A DNA stretch of 64,000 nt from Oribacterium sinus (GCF_963537195.1 NZ_CAUTEG010000003.1:1890-65889); one strand, 5' to 3'; shown: positions 3,536 to 52,584, counted from the first letter of the stretch. Notes: generated by a model from the sequence alone, not told the origin. Program-made: numbers and translations.

Positions 3536-3780
3536 GCTTATCCTTTCTTTTTGAGATGCAATACTGTTGAAATAAACTGCTTTGCAAAGCAAAGTGATTG
3601 ATTAATATACTGCTATAATTTGTACTTCTAGGCTTTATTGTAGCTTGCTCCCCTTGCTTCCACAAGCTTATCTTCCTAAGCTGATTTGTTGCTGGTTGAG
3701 TGTCCTTGTGTAGTTAATCTCCTCCTTAATCTGAAGCTTCGTCTATAGAATCACCCCAAAGCTCCTACTTTTGATTTGAC

Positions 3781-3908
3781 ATCAACATTTGGGAAGGATA
3801 AAATGTTGATGTATCAACATTTTAGAAAGAAAAAATATCCATTCATCAACATTTTAGAAGGTAAAAATATCCGTTTATCAACATTTTAGAATAAAAAACA
3901 TCAAGTCG
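3781..3908. repeat. palindrome plus three 32-bp tandem repeats (ATCAACATTTTAGAA core)
   Basis: ATCAACATTT (3781-3790) and AAATGTTGAT (3801-3810) form an inverted repeat. Direct units start at 3813, 3845 and 3877. Confidence 0.8.
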
Positions 3909-11078: not shown

Positions 11079-11243
11079 ATGTATCGTAGTGTAAGAAAGC
11101 TAAGCACCGGCAGTAATAAAAGTAATGACGGTAATGAAAGTAATGGCTGTAATGCTATAATAACGGTAATAAAAGTAATGACGGTAATGAAAGTAATGGC
11201 TGTAATGGCTGTAATGACTGTAATGAAATACAAAAAGCGTTGA
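11079..11243 (+). CDS. candidate 54-aa repeat-encoded small protein
   Basis: ATG at 11079 after GGAG. Translation is MYRSVRKLSTGSNKSNDGNESNGCNAIITVIKVMTVMKVMAVMAVMTVMKYKKR. The TGA overlaps the RBS of the DJ-1 gene. Below the track cutoff. Confidence 0.3.
   Translation: MYRSVRKLSTGSNKSNDGNESNGCNAIITVIKVMTVMKVMAVMAVMTVMKYKKR
11112..11228. repeat. 13 tandem copies of a 9-bp unit (GTAATGNNN), organised as two ~54-bp blocks
   Basis: Read directly from the sequence. Block 11112-11154 is repeated at 11166-11208. Confidence 0.9.
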
Positions 11244-11880: not shown

Positions 11881-12217
11881 GGTTTTCTAAAGGATAGGGA
11901 TGAAATGAGTGGTAATCTAAGCCCGATACTTGCAAAATCTGATGAAGTGAAGAACTGTAAAAATCAATATGTGAAGCGAATAATGCAGTATGGGTCTATA
12001 ATAGGGGCAATCTGAGCCCGTCAGTACTTACTGAAAGCGAGCAAAGCGAAGCTTGAAGTTAGTACTGCTACGAAGGCGAAGTTAGCGGGAGCGTGCCACG
12101 ATTATAGACCCATACTGCATTTGAGCGCATCCTTATGATAAGTACAGTCCTTCAATACATTGGATTAGGCTAGCGAAAGCGTGCCACGAATTTCATCCCT
12201 ATCCTAATTAGAAAACC
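11881..12217. repeat. composite (nested) rod-like hairpin repeat, units A and B
   Basis: Outer arms 11881-11906 and 12190-12217 are complementary. Inner unit 11982-12121 has perfect 21-bp arms. Core boxes GGGGCAATCTGAGCCCG and GTTAGCGGGAGCGTGCC are present. Confidence 0.85.
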
Positions 12218-24190: not shown

Positions 24191-24229
24191 TTTTTCTCCC
24201 CTTTTCGTCTTTCTTTTTTCTCTACTACT

Positions 24230-24305
24230 CTATTGATTTAGTCTTATTCTACTGATTTAGTCTTATTCTACTGATTTAGTCTTTTTCTACTGATTTAGTC
24301 TTACT
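24230..24305. repeat. four tandem 19-bp repeats (CTACTGATTTAGTCTTATT)
   Basis: Units start at 24230, 24249, 24268 and 24287, between the SBP and permease genes. Confidence 0.9.
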
Positions 24306-24310
24306 CACTT

Positions 24311-24344
24311 GGAAAATTCACTCTATTGCATTAGTGAATTTTCC
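24311..24344 (-). promoter_or_regulatory. intra-operon stem-loop
   Basis: Perfect 12-bp stem GGAAAATTCACT / AGTGAATTTTCC with a 10-nt loop. No U-tract follows. Confidence 0.6.
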
Positions 24345-31372: not shown

Positions 31373-32392
31373 ATGCCATTTATTGTTTTTTTGGTTGTTG
31401 TAATTGTGCTGATCAGCACCACCATTCGTATCGTATCGGAGGCCTGTGCCATGGTTGTAGAGCGTCTTGGACGCTTTCATACCGTATGGCGTCCGGGTAT
31501 TCACTTCCTGATTCCCTTTGCGGATCGTATCGCCAAGAGAATTAACTTAAAGGAGCAGGTAGCGGACTTCCCGCCCCAGCCGGTTATTACCAAAGATAAT
31601 GTTACCATGCGAATCGACTCCGTTGTCTTCTTCGTCATCACCGATCCTAAGCTTTATGCCTACGGTGTGGAGAATCCCATCGCAGCCATTGAAAACTTAA
31701 CCGCAACTACCCTTCGTAACATCATCGGTTCCATGGACTTGGATACCACTTTAACTTCCCGTGATGAAATCAACACCCAGATGCGTTCTCTTTTGGATGT
31801 GGCTACCGATCCTTGGGGTATCAAGGTGAACCGTGTAGAGTTAAAGAACATTCTTCCTCCTGAGGCTATCCGCGAGGCCATGGAGAAGCAGATGAAGGCG
31901 GAGCGTGAGAAGAGAGAGGCTATTACTCTAGCAGAGGGTAAAAAAGAAGCCGCAATTCAAACTGCACAGGGTAACAAGGAGGCTGCAATCCTGAATGCAG
32001 AAGCGGACAAGAAGAAGACCATCCTTGCCGCAGAAGCCCAGAAGGAAAAAGAAATTCAAGAGGCTGAAGGTCGTGCCCAGGCGATTTTGAATGTGCAAAG
32101 AGCGGAGGCGGAAGGTATTCGCCTTTTGAAGGAAGCCGGTGCAGATGATGCGGTACTTCGCATTCGTAGCTTAGAAGCCTTTGTCAAGGTATCCGAAGGA
32201 AAGGCTACCAAGATTATTATTCCTTCCGACATCCAGAATATGGCCGGCTTGTTAAGCAGTTTGAAGGAAACCCTCGTTTCTCCCTCCACTCCGGTGACTG
32301 ACTCCGATTCGGGGAACAGCTCTACTCCGGCAGCTGAAAGTAGCTCTACCTCTGATGCTCCTAAAGAGGTAAATGGAAATGAGGAAGCATGA
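31373..32392 (+). CDS. SPFH/Band 7 (stomatin-like) protein
   Basis: N-terminal TM segment, an SPFH core (VVERLGRFH...TKDNV), and an A/E/K-rich coiled coil. Confidence 0.92.
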   Translation: MPFIVFLVVVIVLISTTIRIVSEACAMVVERLGRFHTVWRPGIHFLIPFADRIAKRINLKEQVADFPPQPVITKDNVTMRIDSVVFFVITDPKLYAYGVENPIAAIENLTATTLRNIIGSMDLDTTLTSRDEINTQMRSLLDVATDPWGIKVNRVELKNILPPEAIREAMEKQMKAEREKREAITLAEGKKEAAIQTAQGNKEAAILNAEADKKKTILAAEAQKEKEIQEAEGRAQAILNVQRAEAEGIRLLKEAGADDAVLRIRSLEAFVKVSEGKATKIIIPSDIQNMAGLLSSLKETLVSPSTPVTDSDSGNSSTPAAESSSTSDAPKEVNGNEEA

Positions 32393-33303
32393 TAAAAATC
32401 ATCTTCTTTGATATCGACGGCACTCTTCGTCCCTTTGAAACCGGAATCATTCCGGAGGATAGCAAGGCTGCCGTCAGAAGAGTGCAGGAGGCAGGAGTGC
32501 TTTGTGCCATTGCCACCGGAAGGCACTGGGTGGAAATCTATAATGAAGGCTTGGTGGAGGATATGTATTTCGATGCCTTTGTCACTTTAGACGGAGGCTA
32601 TGACTACATCCTGCATCCGGAAAAGGCAAGACCTGTTTTTCAAAAGCAGGGAGCCAAAAAACCGAAGGATTACCACTTTCTGATTGATGAGGCAGGGCTT
32701 CCCCTGCCTTACTTTGACCCCAAAAACGGAGAGGTACTTTTACAAGAAGCCATCCACGGAGAAATGGTGGAAAATGTCCTTGCTATGGCGGAAGAAGAAA
32801 GCTTCCCTATTCTGTTTTTGGAAGAGAGACGGCTCTACGCCAACTTTGTAAATGACGCCTTGCTGCATTGTCTTTCGGAAATCAAATCCGGAATTCCTCC
32901 CATCCTTCCTTTGTCAGAAGCCAGGAAAAATCCTCTTTTTATGCTGATTCCGGTGCTTAATGAAACACAAGTGAAAGAGCTGGAAAGAAGAATTCCGGAC
33001 TGCCATTTGGTTCGCTGGTCCGACGGTCTATCCTTTGACGTGACCAAAAGAAATATTTCCAAGGTTTCAGGCATAGAAGCTATTTGTAAGGCTTTAGGCA
33101 TTCAAAGAGAAGAATGTGCCGCCATCGGAGACGGCTGGAATGATGTGGAAATGCTCTCCCATGTGGGAATGGGTATCGCCATGGGCAACGCCAAAGAAGA
33201 ATGTAAGGCTGTAGCAAACTACATCACCACCCCAATCCTGGAAGGCGGCCTACCCCAGGCAGTGGACTACATCCTTGAATATAACGAAACGCAGAAGAAG
33301 TGA
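32389..33303 (+). CDS. Cof-type HAD-IIB family hydrolase
   Basis: FFDIDGTL motif I, and GDGWNDVEML motif IV. Confidence 0.88.
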   Translation: MIKIIFFDIDGTLRPFETGIIPEDSKAAVRRVQEAGVLCAIATGRHWVEIYNEGLVEDMYFDAFVTLDGGYDYILHPEKARPVFQKQGAKKPKDYHFLIDEAGLPLPYFDPKNGEVLLQEAIHGEMVENVLAMAEEESFPILFLEERRLYANFVNDALLHCLSEIKSGIPPILPLSEARKNPLFMLIPVLNETQVKELERRIPDCHLVRWSDGLSFDVTKRNISKVSGIEAICKALGIQREECAAIGDGWNDVEMLSHVGMGIAMGNAKEECKAVANYITTPILEGGLPQAVDYILEYNETQKK

Positions 33304-33409
33304 TCTTTTCAAAGCGAATATCCATCAGCTTTCGCGCAGTATAGCTTGTATTAAGGGAGACACACTTGCCTCCCCACCTACACGCTAAGCATAAATTTTA
33401 AAAGAAATA

Positions 33410-33623
33410 CAGAAGAAGTGATCTTAGCAAGGCGAGTATCCATCAGCTTTCGAGCAGTATAGCTTGTAATAAGGGGCAATCTGAGCCCGCGGGTTCTTGG
33501 CTTTTGTTTTTTAAAAGCTTAGAACCCCTGCGAGGCGAGGTTAGCGGGAGCGTGCCCCTGTTACAAGCTATACTGCGCGAAAGCGATTTCGGATAATGCT
33601 TACCATTCATCACTTCCTCTGCG
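33410..33623. repeat. rod-like hairpin repeat, unit D
   Basis: Arms 33446-33469 / 33561-33584 (24 bp, 1 mismatch). Outer CAGAAGAAGTGAT / ATCACTTCCTCTG. Forward-orientation core boxes. Confidence 0.85.
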
Positions 33624-35248
33624 TTTCTTTTTTTTTTGCTTTGCTCTGCCTTAGCCTTTTCAGCCACCTCCTTCTTTTTCTTCTCCTCTTTTTCCTTTTT
33701 CTTTTCTTCTTTTTTGATAAAAGCGGATTCTTTATCAATCTTTCCCAGAGAAATCATAAAGTCGGAACGTTTTTCCAGTTCTTTTTTTACATGCTTTAAT
33801 CCGTATTCTTCTATAAGGGTTGGGGTTGTGGAAAATAAATTTCTGCCCAGTCCCAGCTTATCTCCCGGAATTTCTACCCCCATGGCTGCCAAAGTGGTGG
33901 GGAAGTCGTCAAAGGTACTGTATTCCCGATATTTCTTTTCTTCCACGGTGGGAACGGCATTGAGATAGGTGGTGAAAACCTTTCTTTGATAGCTTTTTTC
34001 CACACCATTACAGAAATCGTGATCCATGGTGGGGTGATCCCCGGAAATGACTATGGTTGTATTTTCATAAAAAGGCTGCTGCTGTACCCAGTGAACAAAG
34101 TTGGATACCTGCCGGGATGTACATTGGTACACATCCGCATACTGATTTTTCGGGTGCTTTCTTTCGCAAAGTCTGCACACATAACCATCCGGAAAATGAG
34201 TATCCACTGTAAGCAAGGTCAGATTAAAGGGTTGTTCCGCCTTCCCCATATTTTCCAATTCTTCCTTCGCGTACAGAAAAAGCTTCTCATCCTCAAAGCC
34301 CCAGTTCACCCAATAGTTTCTGGGAAATTTGCCTTTTCTCTTCCAATAGGAAAAATCCTCCACGGCTACGTTTCCATGATCCTCCATGAAAAGCTCTCTT
34401 CCGCCAAAATAGCCTACAGAGCCTAAGAGGAATTTTTGATTGTAGCCTTCCTCTTCCAGAATATCGCCCAGGGCGGTTACAGAAGGGAAAAAATGCTTTT
34501 GGCTATCCATGGAATTTTGCTCAATGGAGATTTTCAAAGGAAGACCGGTGCTCTCTCCGAAAATCGCTCCCATGGTCCAGGTGGCTCCGGGAAGGGCAAT
34601 GCCCCCATTCCTTTTTTCTCCCTCTCCGGCAAAGTCCTCTCCCTCTTCGCCCAAAGCCATCAATTCGGGCAGAAGATTTTCCGGAAAATCTCCGCCGTGC
34701 TCCTTGTCCATAAAGGTAAGCTCCGTGGATTCCATGTAAATATAGATAAGATTTCTTTTCTTCTCCGGAAATTTCAAGTCCACATTTTTTGGATCCACAT
34801 AATGCTCTTCAATAAACTTGGAGGATTGAAATTGGGAGCTTAAAAAGGAACCAAGAGATATCCCGTCCCAAGCTTCTGCAATGGTCACTGCCACAAAGAA
34901 AATGCTGAAAAAACCGCATAGAGGCAGGAAGGCCTTCTTGATTTTGGGAAGGAAAATTCGTATCTTTTGCTTTTGGTAGAAAAAATAATAAAATACAGAG
35001 AGGGATAGCCATAAAAGAATGGCCGGGGCCAAGGCTGTGGTAATAAAAAGCTGTACCAGATGTCCGTTGGCTCCACCCATAGGAGCGAAAACATGAAAGA
35101 GAATCTCATCTACCGTAAGCTCTTCCCAGTTGCTGACCAAAAAAAGATAGGACAAGCGAAACAGGCAGCATAATCCCAGCAGAAATAATAAAAGATAGGG
35201 AAGGAGCACTTTCCCTATTGATTTTTTGTTGTCCTTATTTTGTTCCAT
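33443..35248 (-). CDS. LTA synthase family protein (sulfatase domain)
   Basis: N-terminal TM bundle plus a sulfatase domain (ESTELTF, GDHP). The last ~60 codons run through repeat unit D. Confidence 0.85.
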   Translation of the reverse strand: MEQNKDNKKSIGKVLLPYLLLFLLGLCCLFRLSYLFLVSNWEELTVDEILFHVFAPMGGANGHLVQLFITTALAPAILLWLSLSVFYYFFYQKQKIRIFLPKIKKAFLPLCGFFSIFFVAVTIAEAWDGISLGSFLSSQFQSSKFIEEHYVDPKNVDLKFPEKKRNLIYIYMESTELTFMDKEHGGDFPENLLPELMALGEEGEDFAGEGEKRNGGIALPGATWTMGAIFGESTGLPLKISIEQNSMDSQKHFFPSVTALGDILEEEGYNQKFLLGSVGYFGGRELFMEDHGNVAVEDFSYWKRKGKFPRNYWVNWGFEDEKLFLYAKEELENMGKAEQPFNLTLLTVDTHFPDGYVCRLCERKHPKNQYADVYQCTSRQVSNFVHWVQQQPFYENTTIVISGDHPTMDHDFCNGVEKSYQRKVFTTYLNAVPTVEEKKYREYSTFDDFPTTLAAMGVEIPGDKLGLGRNLFSTTPTLIEEYGLKHVKKELEKRSDFMISLGKIDKESAFIKKEEKKKEKEEKKKKEVAEKAKAEQSKKKRNAEEVMNGKHYPKSLSRSIACNRGTLPLTSPRRGSKLLKNKSQEPAGSDCPLLQAILLES

Positions 35249-37411: not shown

Positions 37412-37440
37412 ATCGCTCAGACTTGAAAGCGCTGCACTTC

Positions 37441-37615
37441 GCTTGCGCTGGAGTTACGAATCGCAACTCAACTTTGCTTGCACTGGAGTTATAAGTCACA
37501 ACTTAATTTTGCTTGCACTGGAGTTATAAGTCACAACTTAATTTTGCTTGCACTGAAGTTATAAGTCACAACTTAACTTTGCTTGCACTAATTATGAGTC
37601 GCGGCTTAACTTCTC
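37441..37615. repeat. five tandem 35-bp repeats (GCTTGCACTGGAGTTATAAGTCACAACTTAATTTT)
   Basis: Units start at 37441, 37476, 37511, 37546 and 37581. The first and last units are diverged. Confidence 0.9.
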
Positions 37616-49280: not shown

Positions 49281-49661
49281 AAGGAGCTATAAAATCAAAA
49301 AAATTTTCTAAGCAATATAGGTCTGAATTGGGGCATGCTCTCGCTAGCCTCGCCTTCGCAGTACAGGACTGTAGAATGATAAAAGGCTACGCTTCGAAGC
49401 TGTATGGATATGAAATCGGGCACGCTCCCGCTAACCTCGCCACGTAGCGGATACTAAGCGAAAAACACAGTACCTGTGTTTTCGCAAGTACCGACGGGCT
49501 CAGATTGCCCTTATTATAGCCCCACACTGTATCATTCGATTCAATTATTGATTTTACAGTCCTTCACTTCGCCGGCCTTTCGCAAGTATCAGGCTCAGAC
49601 TACCCCATATTCAGACCTATATTGCCGAAAATTCTTTACTATTTTGATTTTACAGCTCCTT
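49281..49661. repeat. composite (nested) rod-like hairpin repeat, units E and F
   Basis: Outer arms 49281-49300 / 49642-49661 (1 mismatch). Second arms 49312-49328 / 49609-49625 are perfect. The inner core with its flanks spans 49401-49533. Confidence 0.85.
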
Positions 49662-52438: not shown

Positions 52439-52584
52439 CTTCCTATGCCCTAAGGCTTTTTTCTATCTCTGAATCTTTCCTAAGTCCGGGGCTTTTTCCT
52501 ATCTCTGAATCTTTTCTAAGTCTGGGGCTTTTTCCTACCTCTGAATCTTTCCTAAGTCTGGGGCTTCTTCCTATAGCCTAAGGC
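52439..52584. repeat. 36-bp tandem repeat (three full units plus partial flanks)
   Basis: Units at 52454-52489, 52490-52525 and 52526-52561. Each repeats the last codons and the TAG stop of the DUF4446 gene. Confidence 0.9.

Follow-up and report, generated by a model that had tools for sequence, protein, structure and literature searches.

How does a long hairpin repeat come to be read as coding sequence, and why does the end of the neighbouring gene stand twice beside it? These questions are raised by a locus in a window of 64,000 nucleotides of Oribacterium sinus DNA, taken from a 2.53-Mb genome assembly (G000; 165 contigs, 43% G+C, 98% completeness). Here the ORFs of a Cof-type HAD hydrolase and a sulfatase-family, LtaS-like membrane protein converge on the hairpin, which we refer to as unit D (Table 1). 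An earlier note on this DNA proposed that two successive insertion or duplication events had remodelled the ends of both genes. A scan found no tRNA or tmRNA in the window.

Table 1. Features of the convergent locus, in coordinates of the window
Feature	Position	Strand	Basis or remark
Cof-type HAD hydrolase gene	32389-33303	+	ORF; Pfam Hydrolase_3, E 2.6e-40
Last five codons and TGA stop of the HAD gene	33286-33303	+	Outermost portion of the left arm; orthologues in sister genomes end alike
Left arm, copy 1 (tandem unit 1)	33278-33357	+	Direct repeat and inverted pairs; begins within the HAD 3' end
Collapsed core remnant and short right stem	33358-33399	+	Closes unit 1; aligns with truncated-unit remnants in sisters
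Left arm of the complete hairpin (unit 2)	33400-33472	+	Outer, locus-specific part ~33400-33443; inner stem 33444-33472
Conserved family core	33473-33558	+	Family consensus, covariation, inverted pair; apical hairpin 33491-33527
GC-GNRA-GC small stem-loop	3' side of core, ~33543-33552	+	GNRA loop counts
Right arm	33559-33635	+	Inner stem 33559-33587; outer arm 33588-33635 locus-specific, within the LtaS-like coding sequence
Module common to family copies, 144 nt	33444-33587		BLAST against own genome; 79-88% identity
Ancestral TGA stop of the LtaS-like gene	33610-33612	-	Out of frame in G000; ORF end in all eight sisters
A10 run (T10 on + strand), frameshift site	33628-33637	-	12-nt A7-T-A4 tract in sisters
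Frameshift-derived tail	33443-33627	-	61 residues in place of the ancestral final 6; net +55
Sulfatase-family (LtaS-like) membrane protein ORF, 601 aa	33443-35248	-	ORF; Pfam Sulfatase

Unit D is a single hairpin of about 230 nt and a copy of an Oribacterium repeat family. The segment 33395-33640, which holds the hairpin at 33400-33635, folds into one long imperfect hairpin (-117 kcal/mol, z = -11.9). With an exact-seed repeat finder we detected a 75-nt direct repeat (33283-33357 and 33401-33475, 88% identical, at a spacing of 118 nt), and the right arm, at 33555-33635, was found as an inverted copy of both left arms. A 23-nt probe derived from the arm matches only the two left-arm sites and, inverted, 33562-33584, with no match in any of 100 shuffles. 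Once the first arm copy is included in the fold, the right arm is able to pair with either left copy. The direct repeat bears out the duplication of the HAD 3' end and the adjoining arm described in the earlier note, which recurs as an array in eight other assemblies, and the first copy does carry a degenerate core, consisting of the collapsed core alone. The HAD-end 15-mer said to recur inside the LtaS-like gene has its inverted match in that ORF, at 33290-33304 rather than 33289-33303. No Rfam family was matched at the gathering threshold over the whole window; in E-value mode, unit D and canonical copies of the family gave only miRNA-like hairpin matches far below threshold.

The LtaS-like ORF had been described as running through the entire repeat. 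The ORF of 601 residues on the minus strand, with its quoted tail, is as reported; it enters through the right arm and continues across the core and left inner stem, but meets a TGA at 33443-33445 and does not extend through the left outer arm. In a protein search of 31 related genomes, orthologues cover residues 1 to ~541 only, and residues ~541-601 match nothing but other copies of the repeat, most of which have stops in that frame; the tail is therefore derived from the element, as had been supposed. The LtaS-like protein normally has 541 residues, with its stop at a TGA in the right outer arm. Translations of the orthologues all end just past a K/E-rich linker, which agrees with the view that this linker marks the natural C-terminus, and in the three closest genomes the protein ends ...KKIKETQ[K/R]K, followed by the stop. 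The alignment of orthologues places the ancestral stop at 33610-33612, and none of the orthologues has the tail.

In eight of eight sister genomes, a 12-nt A7-T-A4 tract is followed by arm sequence and then by this TGA. G000 alone has an A10 run, two bases shorter than the sister tract, and the frame is therefore moved past the TGA, so that 61 residues replace the final 6. The remaining 5 residues of the difference between 601 and 541 come from a separate insertion in the linker. The read-through, which had been ascribed to insertion or duplication, is thus caused by the shortened A-tract. We envisage that two bases were lost from the tract near the LtaS-like stop in G000 alone, turning A7-T-A4 into A10, after which the ORF would miss its TGA and gain 55 codons from the right arm, core and left inner stem. 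An A-run that loses two bases, so that a gene reads ~55 codons into a hairpin repeat, is an explicable and fairly ordinary finding. The tail, if not an assembly error, is a recent accident and not a conserved domain; it has been tolerated where the dispensable K/E-rich linker ends.

The distribution of protein lengths was examined in the cluster at 90% identity, which has 1026 members. Most members listed have 541 residues, among them a protein of an O. sinus isolate recorded on 74 contigs, and those read end ...KETQ[RK]K; the 601-residue form is recorded on one contig only, that of the window. A member of 569 residues (P0010; two contigs; L169:2980-3210), from another metagenome assembly, has an independent 8-nt deletion in the purine-rich K/E linker; it reads the same right-arm frame and stops in its own core. 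This second, independent frameshift indicates that the linker is indel-prone and apparently dispensable, and that the arm frame happens to be open. Of the long ORFs in the genome, the LtaS-like ORF alone crosses a core; other ORFs overlapping cores are ~90-115 aa long and probably spurious. A different, in-frame insertion of 34-36 residues (~105 nt) is present after FYQK, near residue 95 in the N-terminal membrane region of the LtaS-like protein, in P0005, P0007, P0008 and L004 (G012); it has no match in G000 and does not belong to the hairpin family.

In many bacteria, A/T runs are selected against from ~9 nt upward (Baranov et al., 2005; PMC1088944). The G000 genome has five A/T runs of at least 10, two of them inside long ORFs. 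As in the slippage-compensated A/T-run frameshifts of the same study (PMC1088944), a coding A10 lies exactly where the frame changes, and slippage by one base would restore the ancestral LtaS-like end. Since an A10 run is prone to transcriptional slippage, some mRNAs may still encode the normal end. In contrast to those cases, however, the run is not conserved and is therefore not a programmed site; a programmed frameshift or slippage site was rejected on this ground, the run being unconserved in the eight sisters and the tail missing from orthologues. The locus also resembles the Rickettsia palindromic elements (RPEs), in that sequence derived from a repeat is translated within a host protein. 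RPEs are in-frame insertions kept across orthologues, whereas here the read-through follows from a lineage-specific frameshift and is absent from orthologues. An RPE-like coding insertion was rejected, as no in-frame element is retained across orthologues.

Comparison with the sister genomes replaces the two discrete insertion or duplication events of the earlier note with a tandem array of differing unit number. Each unit spans 104-118 bp and contains both parts of the left arm (outer arm and inner stem), then a collapsed core closed by a short right stem. There is one unit in G055, where the HAD end is the left outer arm of the full hairpin, two in G000, G012 and G015, three in G017, G057, G033 and G034, and at least four in G053. 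In G033 (a 30-contig assembly), TRF reports a period of 117 with 2.6 copies and 94% matches; run on the window, TRF does not call the 1.6-copy array, which the exact-seed repeat finder does call. Unit 1 of G000 is unlike the first unit of the two-unit sisters. Its arm is identical at 71 of 78 positions to the left arm of the full element in G015 (unit 2) and its remnant at 36 of 42 positions to that of G017 unit 2, and the unit adjoining HAD in G000 is of the type standing second in three-unit genomes.

We propose that the left arm and the collapsed core became a tandem unit, whose copy number would have changed between sister species from one to at least four, with the ~20-nt unit starts as the likely points of unequal recombination or of slippage during replication. 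The simplest reading of the sequences is that units were gained and lost by unequal exchange between these starts. We infer the order of events in the array from unit similarity only, and G000 may have lost a first unit or units may have been gained independently elsewhere. The G053 assembly breaks within the array (contigs C564 and C365; L131 and L138), and its last unit has lost most of the core by deletion between a 6-nt sequence in the left outer arm and a direct repeat of it inside the core. Other short tandem arrays are present in the window at 37438-37612 (35 nt), 52454-52574 (36 nt) and 24207-24320 (19 nt), and the repeat finder lists two more at 3780-3898 (period 32 nt) and 11095-11234 (period 9 nt).

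Both the duplication and the frameshift could in principle be products of assembly. That the 118-bp duplication is a collapse or mis-join of repeat copies is hardly credible: the region is rich in repeats and one sister assembly breaks within it, but an equal unit structure is present in eight other independent assemblies, with unit sequences that are orthologous yet diverged, and the duplicated segment is therefore no artefact. A sequencing or assembly error in the A10 run, in which case the gene would truly end at the right-arm TGA and no extended protein would exist, deserves more weight, although we still consider it unlikely. The 601-residue form stands on a single contig within its large cluster, the 12-nt tract is intact in all eight sisters, errors are common in homopolymers and in low-complexity purine tracts, and in a 165-contig assembly a 2-nt difference could be a consensus error. 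However, a T and an A have both been lost, which is not a simple homopolymer miscount, and the remainder of the LtaS-like gene is intact. A different linker frameshift is moreover recorded on two contigs of another sample, so that frameshift variants seem to occur in nature.

If the extended protein is real, its tail could be a selected functional extension, the element having been exapted as coding sequence or being reached by programmed frameshifting. The frame of the right arm and core is open over 61 codons, the same frame is read in a second assembly, and the A10 run could yield two products. We nevertheless judge this very improbable, as the tail is absent from all orthologues and the slippery run is not conserved, all eight sisters having A7-T-A4. 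The likeness of the tail to other copies tracks nucleotide similarity, with stops in frame in most copies, and no other long ORF in the genome crosses a core. Overall, we consider it likely that the locus consists of a family hairpin in a convergent spacer, a variable array and a frameshift confined to G000.

The repeat family itself is abundant. Two conserved core motifs give 139-152 matches in the 2.53-Mb genome, and 120 core-motif matches pair as left and right cores. Read inwards, the consensus begins with a purine-rich terminal motif, which a variable linker joins to the inner stem; the asymmetric core lies innermost. Canonical pairs make up ~90-95% of the inner stem, and several pair types occur at most positions, which indicates compensatory pairing. 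The side stem of the core is capped by GAGA, GGGA, GAAA or GGAA in 131 of 139 copies; in the arrangement GC-NNNN-GC these loops are found 77, 50, 3 and 1 times, respectively. That all side-stem loops are GNRA on one strand hints at a role at the RNA level, and with a single variable loop position this is weak evidence. About a quarter of the cores are nested, one element lying within the apical region of another. In two nested examples in the window (11900-12200 and 49289-49648) the junctions are alike, and in nested copies a full element with its terminal motif replaces ~10 nt of the apical stem of the host. Nested dimers may spread as units rather than through repeated insertion into the loop.

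The terminal motif also occurs by itself, with neither inner stem nor core, as at least 11 short hairpins (for example C1:17433-17493, C1:60380-60440, C46:6585-6624 and C138:101-140). They are either derivatives produced by internal deletion or a separate type of small hairpin or terminator that hosts the core module. In an exact-pattern scan of species-representative genomes, the core was almost confined to Oribacterium, where it occurs in O. sinus, O. parvum, O. asaccharolyticum and metagenome-assembled genomes. The family appears to be undescribed, as it has no Rfam match and a full-text literature search found no paper on repeats in Oribacterium.

Copies of the family are concentrated at gene ends. 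ORFs were called on both sides of 82 loci. In 42 of these the flanking ORFs are convergent, an arrangement found in 11% of all intergenic spacers, and in only 5 they are divergent. About one-fifth of all convergent intergenic spacers hold a copy. The distance from stop to core has a sharp peak at 50-70 nt, and many genes have their TAA stop right where the terminal motif lies. Copies in tandem-gene contexts show no orientation bias (17 with the direction of the genes, 22 opposite), so that the idea of a strictly strand-specific 3'-UTR RNA is unsupported.

In relatives without the element at the HAD/LtaS-like locus, the ~40 bp between the two stops comprise an A-tract, a GC-rich stem and a T-tract, a classic bidirectional terminator. 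In the window, unit D stands between an A-rich stretch on the left-arm side and the T10 run on the right-arm side. Across the element-bearing group, the lysines at the LtaS-like end are encoded by an A-tract that HAD transcripts would carry as a U-run, directly past the base of the hairpin. The long hairpin was not picked up by a simple consensus terminator scan, and intrinsic terminators do not typically have stems of 230 nt. Sitting where element-free relatives have their terminator, the hairpin probably fills the same bidirectional role. The preference for convergent ends, together with the position at this locus, suggests that the elements occupy terminator sites and may provide the function. 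In a distant Oribacterium of higher G+C content (G003; L007), a different large palindromic element is present in the HAD/LtaS-like spacer, with perfect outer inverted repeats of ~33 nt and an interior interrupted by a run of N, and this spacer seems to attract palindromic elements generally. In another genome (G001; L005) the LtaS-like gene converges on a different gene, and the stops are 2 nt apart with no hairpin between them.

The most unusual feature of the locus is that the two gene ends mirror each other. HAD ends with NETQKK and TGA, and the LtaS-like protein normally with KETQ[K/R]K and TGA. Both proteins end in ETQ[K/R]K because mirror-image stops are held in the two outer arms, the TGA of the LtaS-like gene in the right arm and that of HAD in the left. 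The two 21-nt gene ends are inverted copies of each other, identical at 19 of 21 positions, and make up the base of the hairpin. When the gene ends of 30 other convergent pairs around family copies were compared in register, no match exceeded 14 of 27. The idea that both convergent gene ends had been remodelled holds to this extent: both lie within the mirrored outer arms, and it is plausible that at least one of them, be it the HAD or the LtaS-like end, was remodelled.

Where did these outer arms come from? They form an inverted pair of ~45 nt each, with the module of 144 nt set between them. Compared with the closest copies, the outer arms of unit D are identical at 21-28 of 45 positions, and shuffles give 25.7 +/- 2.3. 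Among the other family copies matched in nine genomes bearing the locus, none reaches beyond ~33436-33589. By these comparisons the outer arms are locus-specific, and only the inner 144 nt is common to other copies. Similarity between family copies ends at one of two points, ~15-25 nt or ~55-65 nt past the core, from which we conclude that the family is modular and that unit D is without the usual outer module. Elsewhere in the same genome (C1:33299-33587, containing C1:33340-33535), purine-rich outer arms enter the ends of two convergent ORFs by ~17-20 nt; the reading frames of the two ORFs differ there, and so do the peptides. In species without the element, the HAD C-termini are similar in length and loosely similar in sequence (...LNRKEG, ...LNQK and ...RNAQE). 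This comparison favours a native HAD end, with the arm on the LtaS-like side as a derived inverted copy. In the closer outgroups G031, G032 and G041, the gene downstream of HAD differs.

Template switching between the arms of inverted repeats is documented to homogenise and extend hairpins (PMC8794818; PMC13100816; PMC8604942). Here too the arms stay complementary through paired changes, and the locus-specific outer arms resemble an inverted copy that was made on the spot and extends into the coding region, which makes the process a candidate mechanism. We tentatively suggest, as a possibility that we hold to be somewhat doubtful, that the outer arms were made locally by template switching, the end of one gene being inverted into the other, and that the family is a modular hairpin acting at the RNA level at terminator sites. 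The palindrome would then have been extended outwards, and the last five codons and stop so copied, probably those of HAD, would have become the C-terminus of the LtaS-like protein. Alternatively, the whole 230-nt hairpin with its outer arms could be one mobile element, whose terminal inverted repeats supplied the last codons and stops of both genes. In favour of this, the conserved purine-rich terminal motif is usually found in copies at ~55-65 nt from the core, the TAA stops of many genes fall right at this motif, and the outer arm of unit D is likewise purine-rich and in the same position. We regard such a wholesale arrival as improbable, however, as none of the other copies matched in the nine locus-bearing genomes has these outer arms, and HAD C-termini of similar length and loosely similar sequence are found in genomes without the element at the site. 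Should template switching have produced the arms, two unrelated proteins would share ETQ[K/R]K because the two arms of one structure encode them, and the hairpin encoding both ends would also replace the shared terminator of the two genes. The family would then combine co-varying stems with a fixed asymmetric core whose side stem is capped by a GNRA loop, and would colonise terminator positions.

With regard to mobility, the family is small, noncoding and high-copy, as are MITEs, and apart from the LtaS-like ORF only short spurious ORFs overlap its cores. The terminal motif lies 55-65 nt from the core in approximately half of the copies, and the outer arms of unit D are in no other copy. No autonomous IS with matching ends was found in the genome itself, where every pair of terminal motifs lying outside a core forms a short hairpin and not one of these pairs flanks an ORF. 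Some polymorphic sites have direct repeats of 7-11 nt on either side; these sites look like remnants of deletions. An insertion mechanism that produces an inverted copy of the flank was considered on the basis of sites that are 'empty' in G000 and filled in relatives; in G000 these sites still have one arm. All five sisters examined are filled at one of them; at another, a perfect 7-nt direct repeat borders the missing part on both sides, and G033 has a different partial deletion. The 'empty' sites look like deletion remnants and not virgin targets, and they therefore give neither the mechanism of insertion nor a reliable target-site duplication.

MITE-like palindromic repeats include the Correia elements of Neisseria, ERIC/IRU of enterobacteria, RUP of pneumococci and bcr1 of Bacillus cereus. 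They are noncoding, high-copy sequences of ~100-250 bp that fold end to end and lie mostly just downstream of genes, and they are sometimes overlapped by ORFs or change the ends of genes. The Oribacterium family is alike in being short, noncoding and high-copy, in folding end to end and in lying mostly just downstream of genes, and some of its copies are likewise overlapped by ORFs or alter gene ends. It differs in that it is without an IS with matching ends in its own genome or a clear target-site duplication, that its arms co-vary between copies while the asymmetric core is fixed, and that the outer arms of unit D are unshared. The REP/BIME sequences mobilised by RAYTs are likewise extragenic palindromes scattered through the genome, and favour the 3' ends of genes and convergent spacers. 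Their units of 20-40 nt are much shorter, however, than the 145-230 nt of the Oribacterium unit (module 144 nt), and no Y1 (IS200-like) transposase was detected here, PF01797 having no match in the family carriers G000, G012, G017, G053 and G057.

For annotation, these results mean that the 601-residue protein in the databases is a frameshift product, and that its final 61 residues should not be treated as a domain. At the locus, a hairpin repeat situated at a convergent gene pair holds both stops and spawns a tandem array of variable copy number, and through the open frame of the repeat a small indel in a low-complexity linker can add a long extension to the C-terminus. The locus is a well-explained example of known processes, and the repeat family is the better lead. 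It has ~150 copies and shows covariation; roles in termination or RNA processing in an oral commensal would be conceivable.
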